64,000 nucleotides of DNA from Promethearchaeia archaeon (GTDB lineage Archaea; Asgardarchaeota; Lokiarchaeia; Sigyniarchaeales; SOKP01), in contig JAHQWK010000001.1 in NCBI GenBank assembly GCA_029856145.1, positions 128,001 to 192,000 on the forward strand, read 5' to 3'. Every line of letters starts with the position of its first letter. Position 1 is the first letter of the stretch. Below, piece after piece: positions 32,248-41,842 of the stretch. The notes beneath the pieces are model-generated. The model made no database searches and had not been told where the DNA came from. It worked only from the letters and a program-made list of their open reading frames with translations. Both the position numbers and the translations under genes were made by a program.

Positions 32248-33060
32248 ATGGCAAAGAAAAAATCATGGCTCCAAATGCCAGTAATCCACTCAAAATTTCA
32301 TGATGAAAAATTAGAGAGTGTTTTAATTAAAAAATCTTTAGAATTTTTAACTGGTGAAAGAGGTGAAGCGCCTTCCTTCCTATTTCTTTCAGGGGCTTTT
32401 TTTGATGTGAAATCATTTGCATATTCTGGATTAAGAGCTTGGAAGGGTGCTGTAAAGCCTTCAGAAGCTAATGGAGGAAGAAGACCAGTTTTAGAAGCAA
32501 CATTTGCTTCATTATCAGTTTATTTAAGCTCATTATTAGCACTACAATCAGATTTTTATTTTGCATATGATGAAATTAAAGATATCTTAATAGAAAAGAA
32601 AAGAGAAGATCTCTGGACTATTGTCTCAGAAAAACTGCCATTTATTTCTATACCTCCAAAGGAAATGTATGGGTCGCAAGTATCTCCTATCTCTCCATAT
32701 TTTGTAATTAAACAAGAGGAAGATCTAATTTTAGGAGAAATTTATCCTTCGGCATATTTATCTCAAGTTATTAGGAATATAAAGACAAGATTTTTTGTTT
32801 TTTTTCAATATCAAGGATATTCTGCTTTCGGATTCTTTAATGCAATACCAGAACTTGCAAAATTTGGTTTTAATGAGCAGCCAAACGATTTTAATGGAGA
32901 ACCTACTGGAGAGAATTTAATTAAATTTTCAAAAAATGTAAAGAACGTAAAGGAAATTTTAGTAGCACTTATTCATGCTCATAATAACGCTTTACTTGAA
33001 CAATTTTTAATACCTGATTATGAATTACTATTAAATAAATTATTAGAAGGTGAAGTTTAG
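32248..33060 (+). CDS. Hypothetical protein coupled to the downstream GTPase
   Basis: 270 aa; 3-nt gap to the next ATG. Confidence 0.75.
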   Translation: MAKKKSWLQMPVIHSKFHDEKLESVLIKKSLEFLTGERGEAPSFLFLSGAFFDVKSFAYSGLRAWKGAVKPSEANGGRRPVLEATFASLSVYLSSLLALQSDFYFAYDEIKDILIEKKREDLWTIVSEKLPFISIPPKEMYGSQVSPISPYFVIKQEEDLILGEIYPSAYLSQVIRNIKTRFFVFFQYQGYSAFGFFNAIPELAKFGFNEQPNDFNGEPTGENLIKFSKNVKNVKEILVALIHAHNNALLEQFLIPDYELLLNKLLEGEV

Positions 33061-33063
33061 GGG

Positions 33064-33693
33064 ATGGTAAATATTGGACTCCTGGGGGATGTGAGTGTTG
33101 GAAAAACTAGTATCCTAAGGTTATTCGTGAGATATTTGAAAAAAGGTGATATTGAAAAAGTTAAAGGTGGGATAAAATGTTCAGTTGTTAAAGCGGATTT
33201 CTCTGGAGAAGCCACAGTTCCGGGAGGAGAAAAGGAGGATTCTCTTAACGAAAAAGAAACTAAAACAATCCATCCAAACCGAATTGTGTTTAGAGAAGAC
33301 ACAACAAACAGAGCGCATACAATTTTCGCACCTGGTGGAGATAGAGCTCGTGCCGTTGTGAAGATGGGCATCATAACAATTTCCCGTATTGCAACACAGA
33401 TTATAGCCGTATTTTCCCTCGATAGAGACCTAACAACTCAATTTGAGTTTTTCAATGATGTTAGGTTTTTTCCAGATAAAATTTATGTCTGTATAAATAA
33501 AATCGATTTGGTTGAAGGTGACAAAGAGAAAAAGCTTAATGAGGTGAAAGTGCAAATTAATGATTTCTTTGAAAAAAGAAAGATAGCTATTAATGATACT
33601 TTCATAACCTGTGGTGAAACCATTGAAGGATTTGAAGATGTTGAAATATATAATAACCAAGTCGCAGAAATGATTTTAGAAATTACTACTTAA
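33064..33693 (+). CDS. Divergent small GTPase-like P-loop protein
   Basis: GDVSVGKTS (G1), TKT, NKID (G4); G3 appears replaced by APGG. Confidence 0.8.
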   Translation: MVNIGLLGDVSVGKTSILRLFVRYLKKGDIEKVKGGIKCSVVKADFSGEATVPGGEKEDSLNEKETKTIHPNRIVFREDTTNRAHTIFAPGGDRARAVVKMGIITISRIATQIIAVFSLDRDLTTQFEFFNDVRFFPDKIYVCINKIDLVEGDKEKKLNEVKVQINDFFEKRKIAINDTFITCGETIEGFEDVEIYNNQVAEMILEITT

Positions 33694-33727: not shown

Positions 33728-34243
33728 CTACTTTCTCAACTTTAAAGCAGTTTTTAGAAAAAGCTTTTCTAAATCTATTAGATACCCAATTAAAGGAGTT
33801 AGGCTCACCTTATTCAAATTCTTTTCAATTGTGACAAATCCCATTCTTTTTAATTCTTTAATATCTTCTAAAACTCCTTTTTTTTTTCTTATATCTTTGA
33901 TTTTTTGAATTGTAGTTTCCCCGGAACTATTAAAACAACATATTAAGGTACAAAATAATGTTGCTGCTAATCTAGGGTTTCCATTAAATGGATTTGCTGA
34001 TATAATTTCATTTGTTTCTGGATCGAAAGAAATATACCAATATGAGTTCAGAGGGTTAAATCTAATTTGAAGATTTAAAGGCTCAAGATAATTAGATAAA
34101 TTATTTATTAAATTTTGAAAATAAATCGACTTATTCTTATCTTTAACATTTAAAGCATTAAGAATTTCTCCTTCAGTAGCTCCTATCTTAGATTTGTATG
34201 TTTTTCTACTTAATAAATACATCAAAACTGTCAATTCATTCAT
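33728..34243 (-). CDS. Kite-like (ScpB/Nse1-Nse3/JetB-type) tandem winged-helix subunit
   Basis: Last gene of the SMC operon; NLSNYLEPLNLQIR resembles kite WH-A; second WH-like ELKRMGFV...LTP. Confidence 0.6.
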   Translation of the reverse strand: MNELTVLMYLLSRKTYKSKIGATEGEILNALNVKDKNKSIYFQNLINNLSNYLEPLNLQIRFNPLNSYWYISFDPETNEIISANPFNGNPRLAATLFCTLICCFNSSGETTIQKIKDIRKKKGVLEDIKELKRMGFVTIEKNLNKVSLTPLIGYLIDLEKLFLKTALKLRK

Positions 34244-34249
34244 AGTGAT

Positions 34250-34906
34250 TCATCTCTCTTCTAAATATAAAAAATTTGATTCTTTTTGAAATTTAATTTT
34301 CCCCAATTGGAGTAGATGTAAAAGATATACGAAATATTCAAAGAGTTTTATTTGATCATGTTCATCTTCAAAAATTTCGTCATAAGAACACGGTAATTTG
34401 CTTTTAATTAAATCAAAAAAAGTCATCATTTTTTCAGTAAATTTCTGTTTGGGTATTTCTAATAAAAAGTTTGCTTTAAAATCTATTTTATCAATAGGTT
34501 CAATTATCAAAGGTTCCTTTTTCTCATTAACCAATTTATCTTTAGACGATTCAAGAAATTTTAAAGAAATTGCATCAACATTAAAAGGAGCTCTCCAGCA
34601 ATCATCTAATAATTGATGAATTTCTAAATCATTTGGATTTGTTTTTAAAAAATCGATAAATTTCTCTTTATTATCTAAAAAGTCTAGAAATATTCTTAAT
34701 TCTTCAAATTTCTGACTGAGAAGATGAAAGGCACTCTTATAAGTCATAGAATATTTGTTTAAGTTAAAGATATTAAGTGAATCTTTTAAATTCTCAAAAA
34801 TTGGCACTAATTCTATATCTAAAAGAGAAATCTCTCCGGAAAGGACTCTTGTTTTAATAGTTTCAATCATTTTATTTATTTCTTCAGAGAAATCTTTGTA
34901 TTGCAT
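34250..34906 (-). CDS. Kleisin (ScpA/Nse4-like)
   Basis: ISLLDIEL at the N-terminus; SYDEIF...FVYLLHLLQLGKI kleisin C-terminal WH; directly downstream of smc. Confidence 0.75.
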   Translation of the reverse strand: MQYKDFSEEINKMIETIKTRVLSGEISLLDIELVPIFENLKDSLNIFNLNKYSMTYKSAFHLLSQKFEELRIFLDFLDNKEKFIDFLKTNPNDLEIHQLLDDCWRAPFNVDAISLKFLESSKDKLVNEKKEPLIIEPIDKIDFKANFLLEIPKQKFTEKMMTFFDLIKSKLPCSYDEIFEDEHDQIKLFEYFVYLLHLLQLGKIKFQKESNFLYLEER

Positions 34907-34918
34907 TTTTATTGAATC

Positions 34919-37900
34919 CTATTTAATCTTTATAATTTTTGGTTTAAATATGGAAGAAATTTCTTTTTTTCCTACTCTTGCTATCCCGATTAGTTTTTCT
35001 GCAAGCAAGAATAATGAATTTGAAGATTTTGGTAAGAACATAAATAACTGAATCGGATTTTGCTCTAATGTTGATTTAATTAATTGATATACTACTTCTG
35101 AATTCTTTTCATCTAAAAACATCCCGGGTTCATCAAGCATAGAAAGTGCAGAAGGCTTAATTTCTTGCAAAGATAAGATCAAGCATATTGAAATAAGAGA
35201 AACCTGCCCTCCGCTTAACGCAGTAAAAGATTTTAATTGCTCTTTTGAGGTCGCTGCTTTAATATCAACGCCTAAGTTTTCAAAATCTCCTATTAATCCA
35301 AGATAACAATAAGATTTAATCTGAGAATCTTCAAATTTTTGATTAACCCTCTTTTGGAGATTATCTAGCAAGACACTAAATTTTTGATAATATGTTTTTT
35401 CCATTTTATTTTCTGTTTTCATTGCTGCTTTAACATCTTTCTCCAAGTTATTTTGATTTTTTGAGATTTCCTTAAGAGATGTTAATATCTGGTCTTTCTC
35501 AATCAGAATAGAATCTTCAACATCTAAATATTTGAGTAATTCTTTATCAATTTTAGAAATATCGGTTTTAATTTCCTCTATAGAACGAATTTTAATTATT
35601 TTTTCTGAGATTAAAGGACCTATTTCTGAATTAATTCTAGCTAAATCACTCTTTTTTGATTCAAGATCTTGATTATAAGAGGTTAACTTGATATTTTCTT
35701 GCTCATAGTTTAAGGTTATTTGAATATTCTTCTTCTCTAAATCACTCTTTTTGTTTTTTAATAATATTATTTCTCCTTTTAAATCAGCAATTTCATCTTC
35801 AGTTATTTTAATTTCCTCTTCCACATTTTCTAACTGACGATATATATTAAATGCCGTTTTATCTGCTTTCTGAAAAGCTTCTTTTTTTGTTTCATGCTCT
35901 TTTTGTATTGAATTCTTTTCAAATGTATGTTTATTTAATTTATCTTTTACTTCTTTTAGAATTTCTAAATTTTCACTTAATTTTAAATCCCATTTTTTCT
36001 TATCTTCATTGAGGAAAGTCAATTCATTAGGTATTTCTTTAATCCTGTCATTCCACTTGAAAAATTCTGGATCTGTTTGAGATTTTAACTCTTTAATTTG
36101 ATAATCATGTTCTTTAATTTCACTTTTAAGGTCTAAATTGATATTTTCTAATTCATGCATTTGATTGTATAACTGATTCTTTTTTGATGTAATTCTTTGT
36201 TTTTGGTTAAAATTGTAGAGGAGATCATTGAAAGACTCTTTTTTTTTAAATGTATCTTTTTGTATTGTATCTAATTTGGCTTGTTCAACTCTTAATTCTG
36301 AAATGGTATCATTTAAAGACTTTATTTCAGCTTCTAATACCTTGGATTGCTCTTTTTGAGTACCAGCACTTAATAATCCTTTTAATCTTTTTAAATACGG
36401 TGTTTCAAAGACATATTTATAAGAAATTATTTGTTCTCCCTTTAATGTTACACATTTTCCTTTGAAATTGAGTGTTTGATAGATTTGTCTCCCTGAGTGG
36501 TAATCACTTACAACAAGGCAATTTTTTATTTTTGAATAAATAACTTTTTTAATATCAATATCATCATCAATGATTTTAATTAATTCAGCTAAATAACCAA
36601 CCACATCAGTAGCAGAAATTTTCATAAGGGGTGTAATACTTATATTTTTAGGAAGATAAATATTACAGTATGCACCATATTTATCTTTTAGTCTCTTTAA
36701 CAAGTTTAAGGTATCCCAATCGTTAGCTACAAAACTATAGAGCAATCTTTCACCTAAAACTGATTCTATAGCATAGCTTAACTCATCATTATATTTTAAA
36801 TAATCAATAATAGGCCCCTTTACTTTTAATCCTCTTTTTTTTATCTCATCTTTAAGAATAGTTATACTTGAAGGGAGAATTACTCGTCGTTCTCTAAGCG
36901 AAGCCTGTAATATCTTTAATTTCTTTAATTTTTTAGATTTTGTGAAATCTAACTGCTTTATTTCGGATTCAATTTCAAATAATCTTAATGATGCTCTTTT
37001 CAGTTCTCTATCAAATTGAGTTATTAGATTTTTGGAGGGATTTTCTAAAAACCATTTATTTTTTTCTAATTTGTGCTCGATATCTTTAAAACTTTGAAAA
37101 AGCTGATTAATCTCATCATTAAAAACCTTTATTGATTTCTCATTCTCTTGGATTTTTGATAATCTTTCTTTTTTCTCAAGATTTATTTGATTGAATTTAT
37201 CAAGAAGTTCCCTATTTTGCTTTATTTTTTTTATTAATTGGTCCTGTTCAGTTATTAATTTATCAATATGTAATTCTGCATTTTTAGTTTCCTTTTTTAT
37301 TGCTTTTAATTCGTTTTCCATACTACTTTTCTGTTTCTCGAAATTATCAATTAATCTATTGAATTCCTTAATCTTTGCTGATAGCTCGTCTAACTCTTGT
37401 TTTGCTAATATTTTGTCTTTTTGCCAATTTTGAATTTTTGCAGCTAAATCTTTCTTTTTATAACTTAGCGCCCCAACTTCTTTTGAAAGTTTATTAATGT
37501 TTAATTCCTTATCTGAAATTTTATTTATTAATGCGTTTATTTCCTTATCGGAAATTTCCTTTTTCTTCTTAATTCCATCTAATACAGATTTAACATTTTT
37601 AATTATCTCTTCAATATTTATAATTTCTTTCTCTAAGCGATCTCTATTGGCCCATAAGAGCTCATCAGTAAATTTCGTTTTAATATCTAACAATTTATGC
37701 TTTTTTTCTAGGCGCTCCAATTTAGGATTTAATAGCTCCAAGCTAATATTTAATGTGTTTTTTCTACTTTTTAATGATTGAAGGTTATTGTTTAAATTTA
37801 GTACATTAGTTTTTTGTTGTAAAATTTCATCTCTCAACTCTTTTAATCCAATACCTTCCTCAAGAAAAGTACATAATTCTGTTGGTTTTAAATTTTTAAT

Positions 37901-38380
37901 AGCATCAATTTTCCCCTGGCTAACAATCGCAAACTGATTATCTGGATTGATATTTAAATCAGAAATTAATTTCTGAATATCTTGAGCTGATATTTTTTTG
38001 AAGTCATTATCACTCTTTCTTTGAATATTGAAATATGGAGATTGCCCCCTAATAACATATCTTCTTATTTTTATAATTTCTTCCACATTTTGAATATGAA
38101 CCTCAACCATTGCATGATTTTGTCTATTTCTAATGAAATTAGACCATTTTTTATATCGTTCATCTCTTTCATTACTCCCTAGAGCAAACTTAATTGCTTG
38201 AAATACAGAAGTTTTCCCACTCCAATTTGGGCCTACAATAATCACGAATTTTGATTTACCGAAATCAACTTCATCCTTCTGGAAAGATAAAAAATTTTCT
38301 AAAATTACTTTTCTAATGAAAATTCTTTTATTTTCCATTGAATTGATTTCATTTTTATTTGTTCGTGATCTAGAAGCCAA
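34919..38380 (-). CDS. smc: SMC ATPase, Smc5/6-related archaeal type
   Basis: Walker A GPNWSGKT, Q-loop VSQG, coiled coils, central hinge VKGPIIDYL...AIESVLG, signature LSGGQ, Walker B MLDEP. Confidence 0.93.
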   Translation of the reverse strand: MASRSRTNKNEINSMENKRIFIRKVILENFLSFQKDEVDFGKSKFVIIVGPNWSGKTSVFQAIKFALGSNERDERYKKWSNFIRNRQNHAMVEVHIQNVEEIIKIRRYVIRGQSPYFNIQRKSDNDFKKISAQDIQKLISDLNINPDNQFAIVSQGKIDAIKNLKPTELCTFLEEGIGLKELRDEILQQKTNVLNLNNNLQSLKSRKNTLNISLELLNPKLERLEKKHKLLDIKTKFTDELLWANRDRLEKEIINIEEIIKNVKSVLDGIKKKKEISDKEINALINKISDKELNINKLSKEVGALSYKKKDLAAKIQNWQKDKILAKQELDELSAKIKEFNRLIDNFEKQKSSMENELKAIKKETKNAELHIDKLITEQDQLIKKIKQNRELLDKFNQINLEKKERLSKIQENEKSIKVFNDEINQLFQSFKDIEHKLEKNKWFLENPSKNLITQFDRELKRASLRLFEIESEIKQLDFTKSKKLKKLKILQASLRERRVILPSSITILKDEIKKRGLKVKGPIIDYLKYNDELSYAIESVLGERLLYSFVANDWDTLNLLKRLKDKYGAYCNIYLPKNISITPLMKISATDVVGYLAELIKIIDDDIDIKKVIYSKIKNCLVVSDYHSGRQIYQTLNFKGKCVTLKGEQIISYKYVFETPYLKRLKGLLSAGTQKEQSKVLEAEIKSLNDTISELRVEQAKLDTIQKDTFKKKESFNDLLYNFNQKQRITSKKNQLYNQMHELENINLDLKSEIKEHDYQIKELKSQTDPEFFKWNDRIKEIPNELTFLNEDKKKWDLKLSENLEILKEVKDKLNKHTFEKNSIQKEHETKKEAFQKADKTAFNIYRQLENVEEEIKITEDEIADLKGEIILLKNKKSDLEKKNIQITLNYEQENIKLTSYNQDLESKKSDLARINSEIGPLISEKIIKIRSIEEIKTDISKIDKELLKYLDVEDSILIEKDQILTSLKEISKNQNNLEKDVKAAMKTENKMEKTYYQKFSVLLDNLQKRVNQKFEDSQIKSYCYLGLIGDFENLGVDIKAATSKEQLKSFTALSGGQVSLISICLILSLQEIKPSALSMLDEPGMFLDEKNSEVVYQLIKSTLEQNPIQLFMFLPKSSNSLFLLAEKLIGIARVGKKEISSIFKPKIIKIK

Positions 38381-38401
38381 ATTACCTCATCCTTTCATTT
38401 A

Positions 38402-39652
38402 TCATTTACCAAACGCTTGTTTTATTAGATCTACCCTCTTTTTAGCCTTCTCTAAGTTTATTTGTGCTTTGTTTGGAGAATCATTTAAAATAAATGGATA
38501 TCTTGCTAACATTTTCATATCATTATCCTCCAACGGCTCTTTTTTATTTAATTTATCAATAATAATTGTAAGTTCTGTATAATTCTTAGAAGCCGCATCT
38601 TCATATAATTGATTTAGCATGAAGTCTGAAATTCGTGATTCTCGAATTCCATTAACAAAATCCCTAATATCTTTGATATCTTCTACTTTTTTAAATATTT
38701 GGGTCGGAATTTTTTCATTATTTTGATGAATCTCTGCCTCTAACTCAATATTTGAGTTTTTTTCTGAATTTTGAGTCATAGAATTAGGAATATATTCACC
38801 CGAAACAATCATATCAATCAAAACATCGGTGATTTCATTGCTCATTTCATTCAATTCTGAATTTAAGAAATGTTTGAATATTCCTACTTTCAACAATTGC
38901 AAAATGTCTTTAACTTCCCAATTTTCTGTATAATTTACGATATCATTAATATCGAAGACTATTTTCGGGTTTTTTTCTAAAAAATCTTTCAATACAGTTT
39001 CTCGCTCTATTCTATTCAATAATGGGACTTTAATAAAAAGATCAAAGGTAGAATATATTTTATTAGACACACTTTTAATGTCTTGAATCTCATAATTTAT
39101 CCAAACTAAAATTAAATTAGAGTCAATAAATTTATAATCAAAACTCTTGTTTTGCCAAGCATTTAGAAAAACTTCTAATAAACTTTTATTTTCAAATTTT
39201 TGTCTGAATACAGGTTGTTGATTAATCAATAATACTTTTTTTTCCTCAACTTTATCAGGATCTCTCGTATCCGTTTCAGTTTTCTCTTCTTTTTTTCCAT
39301 CTTTTCCAAAAGCTTCTAATATTGAAATAAAACTTTTTAAAAATTTATTAGGATTCTTAAGAAGTTCAATATCGTTAAATTCAATTAAATCTAAGTAGTA
39401 ATTTTTAGTAATTAGTTTGATATAATCTAGTATATCCGTTCCGAGATTAAGATTAATTAAAATGGCTCCTTTTGGCTCTATATAACCATTTAAAGTTGGA
39501 TCGTCATGATTAGTTAACATAGCCTTGAGAAAATTAATAATATCATTATATTTATCCCGATAGAAAATATCTTCTTTATTAATATTAATTTCTGAAGGTG
39601 AAATTACCTTAAAATACTTTGAAAATTCCGGAATGTCATTTAATTCTTTCAT
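38402..39652 (-). CDS. Degenerate AAA+ (CDC48/PAN-like) protein lacking Walker motifs
   Basis: PKGAILINLNLGT in place of PKG.LLYGPPGTGKT; FDLFIKVP..NRIER..VLK and TENWEVKDI match the AAA lid region. Confidence 0.6.
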   Translation of the reverse strand: MKELNDIPEFSKYFKVISPSEININKEDIFYRDKYNDIINFLKAMLTNHDDPTLNGYIEPKGAILINLNLGTDILDYIKLITKNYYLDLIEFNDIELLKNPNKFLKSFISILEAFGKDGKKEEKTETDTRDPDKVEEKKVLLINQQPVFRQKFENKSLLEVFLNAWQNKSFDYKFIDSNLILVWINYEIQDIKSVSNKIYSTFDLFIKVPLLNRIERETVLKDFLEKNPKIVFDINDIVNYTENWEVKDILQLLKVGIFKHFLNSELNEMSNEITDVLIDMIVSGEYIPNSMTQNSEKNSNIELEAEIHQNNEKIPTQIFKKVEDIKDIRDFVNGIRESRISDFMLNQLYEDAASKNYTELTIIIDKLNKKEPLEDNDMKMLARYPFILNDSPNKAQINLEKAKKRVDLIKQAFGK

Positions 39653-40260: not shown

Positions 40261-40656
40261 TTAAGCTAATTCTTGATTTAATAAATCTAGATAAGATGAA
40301 ATCTTTTCTTTAACTATGTCATAATGCGTAAACTTACCTTTTTTCCATCCTTTAATTAAACCAGCATTTTCAAGAATTTTTAGATGATGGGATATAGATG
40401 GTTGTGACTCATCTAAAGCCGCTTCTAATTCACATACACATCTATCTTTTTCTTTTAAAACATTTATAATAATCAAACGTTTCTTATTCGCTAAGGCATT
40501 TACAAAGTTATTTAAATTATCAAACCTAAAATTTTGAATTAATTGATCTCCAATCTCTCTTAATTTTTTAAAATGCTGATCTGGGTTTTCCACATCTTCA
40601 CATTTAATCAATTTAGCTTTAATTTCTTCCTCATGGTCAATATCCATTTTAAACAC
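40261..40656 (-). CDS. arsR: ArsR/SmtB metalloregulator
   Basis: CVCEL, SQPSISHHLKILENAGLI; divergent from acr3. Confidence 0.88.
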   Translation of the reverse strand: MFKMDIDHEEEIKAKLIKCEDVENPDQHFKKLREIGDQLIQNFRFDNLNNFVNALANKKRLIIINVLKEKDRCVCELEAALDESQPSISHHLKILENAGLIKGWKKGKFTHYDIVKEKISSYLDLLNQELA

Positions 40657-40813
40657 TTCTTTTAAGGCAAAATTTTAATTATTCAATATTTAAATAGGAT
40701 AAACAACTTTATAATTATTTATCCAAATCAATAAATTTTTATTTGAATAAAAATTTTGTTATTTAAGATTAATACTGCCCTTTATCAAAATAATTAAAAA
40801 AAACTGAAATATC

Positions 40814-41842
40814 ATGAGTGAAGAAGAAGGAGAAGGTAGAACAATTAGCTTTTTCGAGAAATTTCTCCCACTTTGGGTAGGTTTATGTATCCTCATAGGC
40901 ATTATTCTTTCTCAGGTTATTCCTGGTATTAGCCAAGCTATTAATTCTTTCAGTATCGGTCAGATTTCCATACCAATAGGCATTTGTCTCTTCCTAATGA
41001 TGTATCCAGCAATGTTGAATTTACAAGTTTCGGAATTGAAAAAATTAGGGAAAAATCCTAAACCAATAATTTTAACACTTGTATCTAATTGGTTAGTGGC
41101 TCCATTTATAGGTTTACTTATGGCCCGTATATTTTTACAAGGTTATGAACAATTAGTATTCGCTATTATTTTACTAAGTGCAAGTCCATGCACAGCAATG
41201 GTTTTAGTGTGGGGTTGGATGGCAAAAGGTAATCAGGAACAGAATGTAGTAAATACAAGTCTAAATACGATAACTATAATATTTGGTTATGCTCCTATGG
41301 TGGCATTATTAACAGGTATTCAAAATATTCCTGTTGATTGGCTATTATTATTGGTTTCGGTTTTTATCTTCATTGGACTTCCATTACTAATAGGAATAAT
41401 TAGCAAAAGACTTTTAATATCGTCTAAAGGCGTAGATTGGTTTAATAATATTTATCGACCAATAGTTGGAAAGATATCGATTATGGCACTATTAACAACC
41501 CTGGTTTTACTTTTCTCTATGAATGGAAATGTTCTAATTACTAATCCAGGCTATCTTTTATTAATTTCAATTCCACTCTTACTTGGATTCGTAATTGTAG
41601 TTGGATATAATATAATTATAACCAAACTATTCAAATTAAAGTATCGCGAGGCAATTATCACAGTAATCATAGGTTCATCAAGTCATTTTGAAATTGCTAT
41701 TGCTACAGCTATTGCTATGTATGGAATTGGTTCAATCGCAGCATTGGGCACTACAATGGGATTATTCTGGGAGGTTCCAGTGATGTTATTAATTGTATAT
41801 TTAGGTCGATTTTTAAGAAAGAGAGGTTTTTGGAAATCCTAA
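40814..41842 (+). CDS. acr3: ACR3-family arsenite efflux transporter
   Basis: MMYP, NWLVAP, SPCTAMVLVW, SSHFEIAIA. Confidence 0.92.
   Translation: MSEEEGEGRTISFFEKFLPLWVGLCILIGIILSQVIPGISQAINSFSIGQISIPIGICLFLMMYPAMLNLQVSELKKLGKNPKPIILTLVSNWLVAPFIGLLMARIFLQGYEQLVFAIILLSASPCTAMVLVWGWMAKGNQEQNVVNTSLNTITIIFGYAPMVALLTGIQNIPVDWLLLLVSVFIFIGLPLLIGIISKRLLISSKGVDWFNNIYRPIVGKISIMALLTTLVLLFSMNGNVLITNPGYLLLISIPLLLGFVIVVGYNIIITKLFKLKYREAIITVIIGSSSHFEIAIATAIAMYGIGSIAALGTTMGLFWEVPVMLLIVYLGRFLRKRGFWKS

Follow-up and report, generated by a model that had tools for sequence, protein, structure and literature searches.

The stretch of DNA analyzed here, referred to as the window, comprises 64,000 nt of contig JAHQWK010000001.1 (assembly GCA_029856145.1, forward-strand positions 128,001-192,000) of a Promethearchaeia archaeon (Sigyniarchaeales; SOKP01). 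The host genome (G000, 3.55 Mb, 97% complete) is that of a Loki-type Asgard archaeon. At window positions 33728-39652 four minus-strand open reading frames form an operon that encodes a 416-aa pseudo-AAA+ protein (38402..39652), a 1153-aa SMC protein with a TTG start (34919..38380), a 218-aa probable kleisin in the position of Nse4 or ScpA (34250..34906) and a 171-aa kite protein (33728..34243). The gene order and the gaps of 21, 12 and 6 nt, given in an earlier note on the same DNA, were confirmed from the open reading frame coordinates. Very probably, the operon represents the 'second' SMC operon that Loki-type Asgard archaea keep for housekeeping. Its SMC-kleisin-kite trio has already been published as a prediction, and its fourth gene, the AAA-derived one, is undescribed in the literature searched. 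Searches of Pfam and NCBIfam with single sequences left the 416-, 218- and 171-aa proteins without identification. Their assignments are derived from profile, model and motif columns for the pseudo-AAA+ protein, from indirect matches and position for the kleisin, and from the model and structural matches for the kite, while the SMC was assigned by Pfam, motifs and trees.

The 1153-aa protein exceeded the Pfam cut-offs for SMC_N and SMC_hinge and consists of a split ABC ATPase, coiled coils and an SMC hinge. All Walker A, Q-loop and hinge stretches quoted in the earlier note are present, and Walker A, signature, Walker B and D-loop motifs are intact across the family of window-type SMC proteins. 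In this family the switch His is replaced by an invariant Pro in a Q-x-x-x-x-P loop, and the D-loop of the window SMC reads MFLD where canonical Smc has AALD. The Pro switch loop was also found in eukaryotic Smc5 genes retrieved from metagenomes (TPK) and in TACK SMC5/6-related proteins. Canonical Smc proteins carry TH/SH or TL/SL at the switch position. Since TL/SL occurs in some of them, a missing His alone is not diagnostic, whereas the Pro is. A canonical Smc-ScpAB identity of the window SMC was rejected by the trees and by profile scores, with 193 bits against the TIGR02169 cut-off of 729 bits, and 248 bits for the canonical profile compared to 1238 bits for the profile of its own type.

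Reciprocal profile comparisons gave 203-226 bits for Smc5/6 chains with the window-type profile and 135-153 bits with the canonical profile, and the reverse for Smc and Smc1-4 chains. Among solved structures the N-head profile matched yeast Smc5 best (94 bits), followed by Smc2 (88) and Pyrococcus Smc (86). In a head-domain tree (LG+C20) canonical Smc was split from window-type SMC and Smc5 with a support of 100/99. After addition of TACK and other Asgard sequences the split between canonical Smc and the rest was recovered with 97/89. This split is unrooted, and the trees were built without Smc6, Smc1-4, ClsN and JetC sequences. All SMC proteins with an upstream AAA gene formed one clade (98/98), with the exception of Freyarchaeum. 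Taken together, the sequence comparisons support the assignment of the window SMC to the SMC5/6-related archaeal type, outside canonical Smc and on the side of Smc5. The earlier note had arrived at the same type, and the trees, the Pro switch loop common with Smc5 and the orthology to an operon reported by van Hooff et al. bear it out.

Several results weigh against this assignment. The C-head profile ranked Pyrococcus Smc first and Smc5/6 low among solved structures, and the full-length profile, the scores of which are dominated by the coiled coil, placed Smc and Smc1-4 above Smc5/6. The match of the kite protein to ScpB is no weaker than that to Nse1. In an approximately unbiased (AU) test with a long Rad50-like outgroup, a clade of window-type and canonical SMC was not rejected (p=0.48); the Rad50-like rooting is unstable, and a special link of the window SMC to Smc5/6 depends on the root. 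These are the results that would be expected of a divergent archaeal Smc paralogue without special relation to Smc5/6, with convergent or ancestral motifs and a grouping caused by long branches. We nevertheless regard such a paralogue as very improbable in view of the reciprocal profile scores, the N-head match to Smc5, the highly supported branch of window-type SMC and Smc5, and the common Pro switch loop. Two published phylogenies also recovered the grouping of the window type with Smc5/6 (PMC8665677, PMC9389158 and van Hooff et al.). The host genome contains one SMC of the window type and one kite of the window family. SMC proteins of this type comprise about 835 aa in the Freyarchaeum group (L104, L105, L110) and 630-680 or 980 aa in TACK members, implying from sequence lengths that the coiled-coil arms of archaeal SMC5/6-type SMCs have been shortened repeatedly.

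The model of the 171-aa protein (model confidence as pLDDT, 86.5) is a tandem winged helix lacking a RING domain, and it matched ScpB (Z 11.7) and Nse1 (Z 9.8) over its full length. The top 23 Foldseek rows comprised ScpB, MukE, JetB and Nse1 chains and one hypothetical C. tepidum protein. SMC_ScpB was matched by 4 of the 32 members of the 171-aa family (best E 1e-6), and the family profile missed the genome's own ScpB. The 171-aa protein is confirmed as a kite by this modeled fold. The earlier suggestion of a specifically Nse1/JetB-like kite was not borne out, the ScpB match exceeding that of Nse1.

The 218-aa protein probably is a kleisin, as judged from sequence relatives and gene order. 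Its C-terminus gave a weak profile match to the C-terminal domain of P. furiosus ScpA in 4i99_C, a structure of ScpA with the Smc head (E 0.74), and ESM Atlas look-alikes, which serve as leads only, pointed to Nse4_C (0.88) and ScpA/Rad21 (0.82-0.84). TACK proteins at the kleisin position matched Nse4_C with an E value of 1e-5 and scored weakly with the 218-aa family profile. Alignments of the family by hhalign were uninformative, both to a TACK kleisin (E 0.012 at a probability of 3.6%) and to the genome's own ScpA (E 0.5). Profiles of both the kite and the kleisin family gave weak or generic winged-helix matches only when searched against PDB sequences. Thus, the kleisin proposed in the earlier note is supported indirectly by position, by the matches of its relatives and by the MK-D1 orthologue; a direct Pfam match was not obtained, and this indirectness counts against our interpretation of the operon.

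A search for a separate canonical smc-scpAB locus was successful. An operon of smc (1483 aa), scpA and scpB is located on contig C20 of G000 (L071:5512-11843, minus strand). The unusually long canonical Smc gave no SMC hinge with Pfam or with a canonical hinge profile. A helical segment occupies the middle of the protein, and a form of about 1485 aa recurs across the family. P. syntrophicum possesses an additional, ordinary Smc of 1197 aa that is missing from G000, and hence a hinge is recognizable in no SMC of this genome other than that of the window. Because a separate canonical locus exists, the objections foreseen in the earlier note, a sole SMC of canonical type or small proteins of other folds, do not apply.

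The SMC5/6-related archaeal SMC proteins were defined by Yoshinaga & Inagaki 2021 (PMC8665677). According to van Hooff et al. (10.1101/2024.01.07.573240), TACK and Asgard archaea contain two complete SMC operons, and P. syntrophicum genes 495-497 (NZ_CP042905.1_495-497) encode an SMC5/6-related SMC, an Nse4-related kleisin and a kite. The orthologous operon of MK-D1 consists of DSAG12_00496 (AAA-like), the SMC gene, DSAG12_00498 and DSAG12_00499. From order, strand and numbering (offset 2), DSAG12_00497-00499 appear to be the published example. Hence, the novelty ascribed to the trio in the earlier note was overstated. In the portions of van Hooff et al. that were checked, the supplementary text does not contain 'AAA' and the sections covered do not mention DSAG12_00496. 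The literature searched, which included few subscription papers, yielded no description of the fourth gene.

The product of the fourth gene can be divided into an AAA core with lid (residues ~5-295), a disordered linker (~295-340) and a C-terminal helical domain (~340-416). Its family profile matched Cdc48/p97 (E 1e-8), Vps4 and VAT. The model (pLDDT 79) matched FtsH/p97 in Foldseek (E 1e-8) as well as Trip13 (Z 15.5) and VAT (Z 14.9) over about 250 residues. In the motif columns neither the Walker A Lys/Thr nor the Walker B Asp-Glu is kept, and the arginine finger is likewise missing. Profile and model thus support a classical-clade, Cdc48/p97-like AAA+ core and lid that is predicted to be catalytically dead, as the earlier note had proposed. 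G000 carries three Cdc48-like paralogues.

The ratio of nonsynonymous to synonymous substitution rates (dN/dS) of the fourth gene was 0.14-0.23, near the values of the kleisin and kite genes, indicating purifying selection. The helical C-terminal domain of about 80 residues was the most constrained part. Among close relatives its dN values were 0.04-0.08 and those of the core 0.09-0.15, and identity across classes was 37% for the domain compared to 17% for the core. Sequence searches of PDB and ESM Atlas with this domain gave no match. Complex prediction for the C-terminal domain with the SMC head and arms and the kleisin, leaving out hinge, kite and AAA core, resulted in a score of 0.00, which is evidence neither for nor against an interaction.

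The orthologues form a graded series from active to dead ATPases, the motifs being complete in a few lineages. In the L230 orthologue (submitter label 'Odinarchaeota', unverified) all ATPase motifs are intact, the C-terminal domain is kept and Pfam AAA was matched with E 8e-37. The Freyarchaeum orthologue has an intact Walker A motif and a Walker B Glu replaced by Asn. Thorarchaeia-like orthologues have lost the Walker A Lys, and Loki orthologues have lost all motifs.

An AAA-like gene was located directly upstream of the window-type smc in 92 out of 100 fetched loci, and the remaining 8 end before that point. Hence, there was not a single locus with room upstream that lacked the gene, although these 92 informative loci are related and not independent. 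The gaps between both genes mostly ranged from -38 to +79 nt. Even between classes, where protein identity is down to about 20%, both genes have stayed head to tail a few bases apart, while all other flanking genes changed completely between lineages. Chance falls far short of accounting for this arrangement. A profile of the C-terminal domain detected exactly one copy in 114 out of 251 Asgard genomes, all of them in the seven families carrying this SMC subtype. These include Promethearchaeum, Jordarchaeales and Freyarchaeum as well as, by protein match, Thorarchaeia. Not a single match was found in 119 Asgard genomes of other families.

The AAA gene is not a general component of such operons. 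In six sampled smc-kleisin-kite operons of the TACK type and in SMC5/6-type operons of four other Asgard families no AAA gene was found upstream. Since these operons work without it, the gene is not essential to an SMC5/6-type complex. It is lineage-restricted: either some Asgard lineages gained it or other lineages lost it, and it is not a demonstrated ancestor of a eukaryotic subunit. The 'proto-Smc5/6' with its own accessory factor envisaged in the earlier note therefore went too far.

The same operons fit the alternative of a known SMC5/6-related complex made by the trio alone, with the AAA-like gene as a mere co-transcribed neighbour that has a job of its own, its product being, for example, a pseudo-ATPase subunit paired with Cdc48/VAT or MoxR-VWA. 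Alternative partners are at hand in the Cdc48-like paralogues of G000 and in a MoxR-like AAA_5 ATPase, which together with a 570-aa partner gene adjoins the AAA-SMC operon in most of the non-Loki loci fetched (L091-L109, L231, L089). In the host genome, however, the MoxR pair is located on another contig (C17:19807-23303), unlinked to the operon. Furthermore, the single-copy AAA gene was never found away from smc in the informative loci, and few-base gaps were kept where all other neighbours had been exchanged. We therefore consider a mere neighbour rather unlikely. Two points weigh against a dedicated partner, namely that co-transcription alone can keep synteny and that the gene is missing from the sampled operons of TACK and several other Asgard archaea.

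On balance, we lean towards the explanation that the ring-forming trio acts with an AAA-derived dedicated accessory factor, a former remodeller turned adaptor. Complexes of two SMCs, one kleisin and two kites are expected to form an ATP-driven, DNA-translocating ring. By analogy, the trio of the window may form such a ring that binds and moves DNA by loop extrusion or entrapment, consistent with the conserved catalytic motifs of its SMC, and would act apart from the canonical Smc-ScpAB, whose genes lie on contig C20. The ancestral upstream protein may have been a working AAA+ ATPase of the Cdc48 class, most likely opening, unloading or recycling the ring. In most lineages, including that of the window, the motor would have decayed to a nucleotide-independent adaptor or a loader or regulator. 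Such an adaptor could contact the complex via the conserved C-terminal helical domain and would resemble Nse5/6 in function, not in homology. The AAA protein probably is an extra partner, which may bind the complex physically and load or unload it: the position as first gene, a unique domain conserved after loss of the motor and the survival of active orthologues fit this model. That it is a true fourth subunit of the SMC ring, a former unfoldase that opened or recycled the kleisin ring, has kept its activity in some Asgard lineages and elsewhere has become a scaffold with a new docking domain, is conceivable but doubtful.

A role in chromosome topology linked to replication or repair is favoured over defence by the stable single-copy distribution and the lack of an effector. 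An anti-plasmid or anti-virus system comparable to Wadjet or Smc5/6 restriction, in which the dead AAA+ protein takes the place of JetD as a sensor or an effector adaptor, appears quite improbable. Eukaryotic Smc5/6 has been implicated in viral DNA defence, as stated by van Hooff et al. (10.1101/2024.01.07.573240), and a sporadic locus of Ca. Harpocratesius repetitus (L090:4824-16137) may be read in the same direction. This extra locus encodes an intact, IetA-like AAA protein (PADLOC) lacking the C-terminal domain, an SMC-like protein of 1057 aa, an unknown 322-aa protein, a kleisin with a weak Nse4_C match and a kite-sized protein, and is preceded by three unknown genes. It possibly represents a mobile or defence-type paralogue. 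In contrast, the operon of the window type is near-universal within the lineage, in single copy and with stable housekeeping neighbours, unlike patchy defence islands. A JetD_C domain (PF09983) was not found in the 97%-complete genome, confirming the absence of a JetD nuclease noted earlier, and neither nuclease nor PADLOC matches were obtained for the small genes. The plasmid or virus restriction formerly considered is therefore disfavoured by the lack of an effector and by the conserved, vertical single-copy pattern.

Genes next to the operon were also inspected. A small GTPase gene lies 34 nt past its last stop codon in convergent orientation. This 209-aa GTPase and a 270-aa gene of unknown kind (window positions 32248-33693, plus strand) both converge on the operon, share 67-95% identity and are found beside it throughout the family, not in other families. 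Upstream, at 40261-41842, an ArsR-type regulator and an ACR3-like transporter are encoded, which, judged by eye, probably constitute an unrelated arsenic-resistance module. A scan of the locus for promoters and terminators gave matches at chance level; the scan models are bacterial-type and the host is an archaeon.

The archaeal SMC5/6-related complex has so far only been predicted, and its authors see it as a way to the ancestral job of Smc5/6. Reconstitution of the trio from cultured Lokiarchaea would leave out a fourth gene, which invariably opens the operon and matches the kleisin and kite genes in conservation. If the AAA protein binds, it would be the first AAA+-derived subunit of any SMC complex. 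If it is a subunit, a loader or unloader of the Asgard SMC5/6 type would have evolved independently of eukaryotic Nse5/6. The series from active to dead ATPases makes the emergence of an SMC regulator directly testable. The bearing on the eukaryotic ancestor is limited by the restricted distribution of the gene.

Among known systems ClsN, the coalescin to which the earlier note had likened the SMC, shares the SMC-superfamily ATPase. It belongs to the zinc-hook ASRP family, which is separate from the SMC5/6-related SMCs (PMC9389158). Membership of the window SMC in this family was rejected because it lacks CxxC, has an SMC hinge above the cut-off in place of the zinc hook and scored 56 bits against 300 with the ASRP model. 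Wadjet (JetABCD) has SMC, kleisin and kite in common with the window, which lacks JetD and showed weak JetC matches at the level of the coiled coil. PADLOC gave no match for the 416-, 218- and 171-aa proteins and no JetA, JetB or JetD, and with JetD_C missing from the genome membership in this system was also rejected.

Smc-ScpA-ScpB likewise combines a homodimeric SMC with hinge, a kleisin and a kite, and the fold of the window kite is nearest to ScpB. It forms a separate clade, from which the window SMC differs in the loss of the switch His and in the MFLD D-loop. Eukaryotic Smc5/6 shares the Pro switch loop, a similar Q-loop region and the architecture of kite and kleisin. It contains a Smc5-Smc6 heterodimer, two kites, the Nse1 RING, Nse2 and Nse5/6, whereas the operon encodes one SMC and one kite without RING, each expected to form a homodimer, and neither Nse2 nor Nse5 or Nse6. 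Smc5/6 is not known to contain an AAA+ subunit. The closest counterpart is the archaeal SMC5/6-related operon, which shares the three genes and their order and also coexists with canonical smc-scpAB; its TACK members differ in shorter SMC proteins (630-980 aa) and in the lack of an upstream pseudo-AAA+ gene. The fourth protein itself shares the fold of AAA core and lid with Cdc48/p97/VAT, Vps4, FtsH and TRIP13 (Z about 15). It differs from these classical AAA+ proteins by its single module, the loss of the catalytic motifs, a unique C-terminal helical domain and its tie to an SMC operon.

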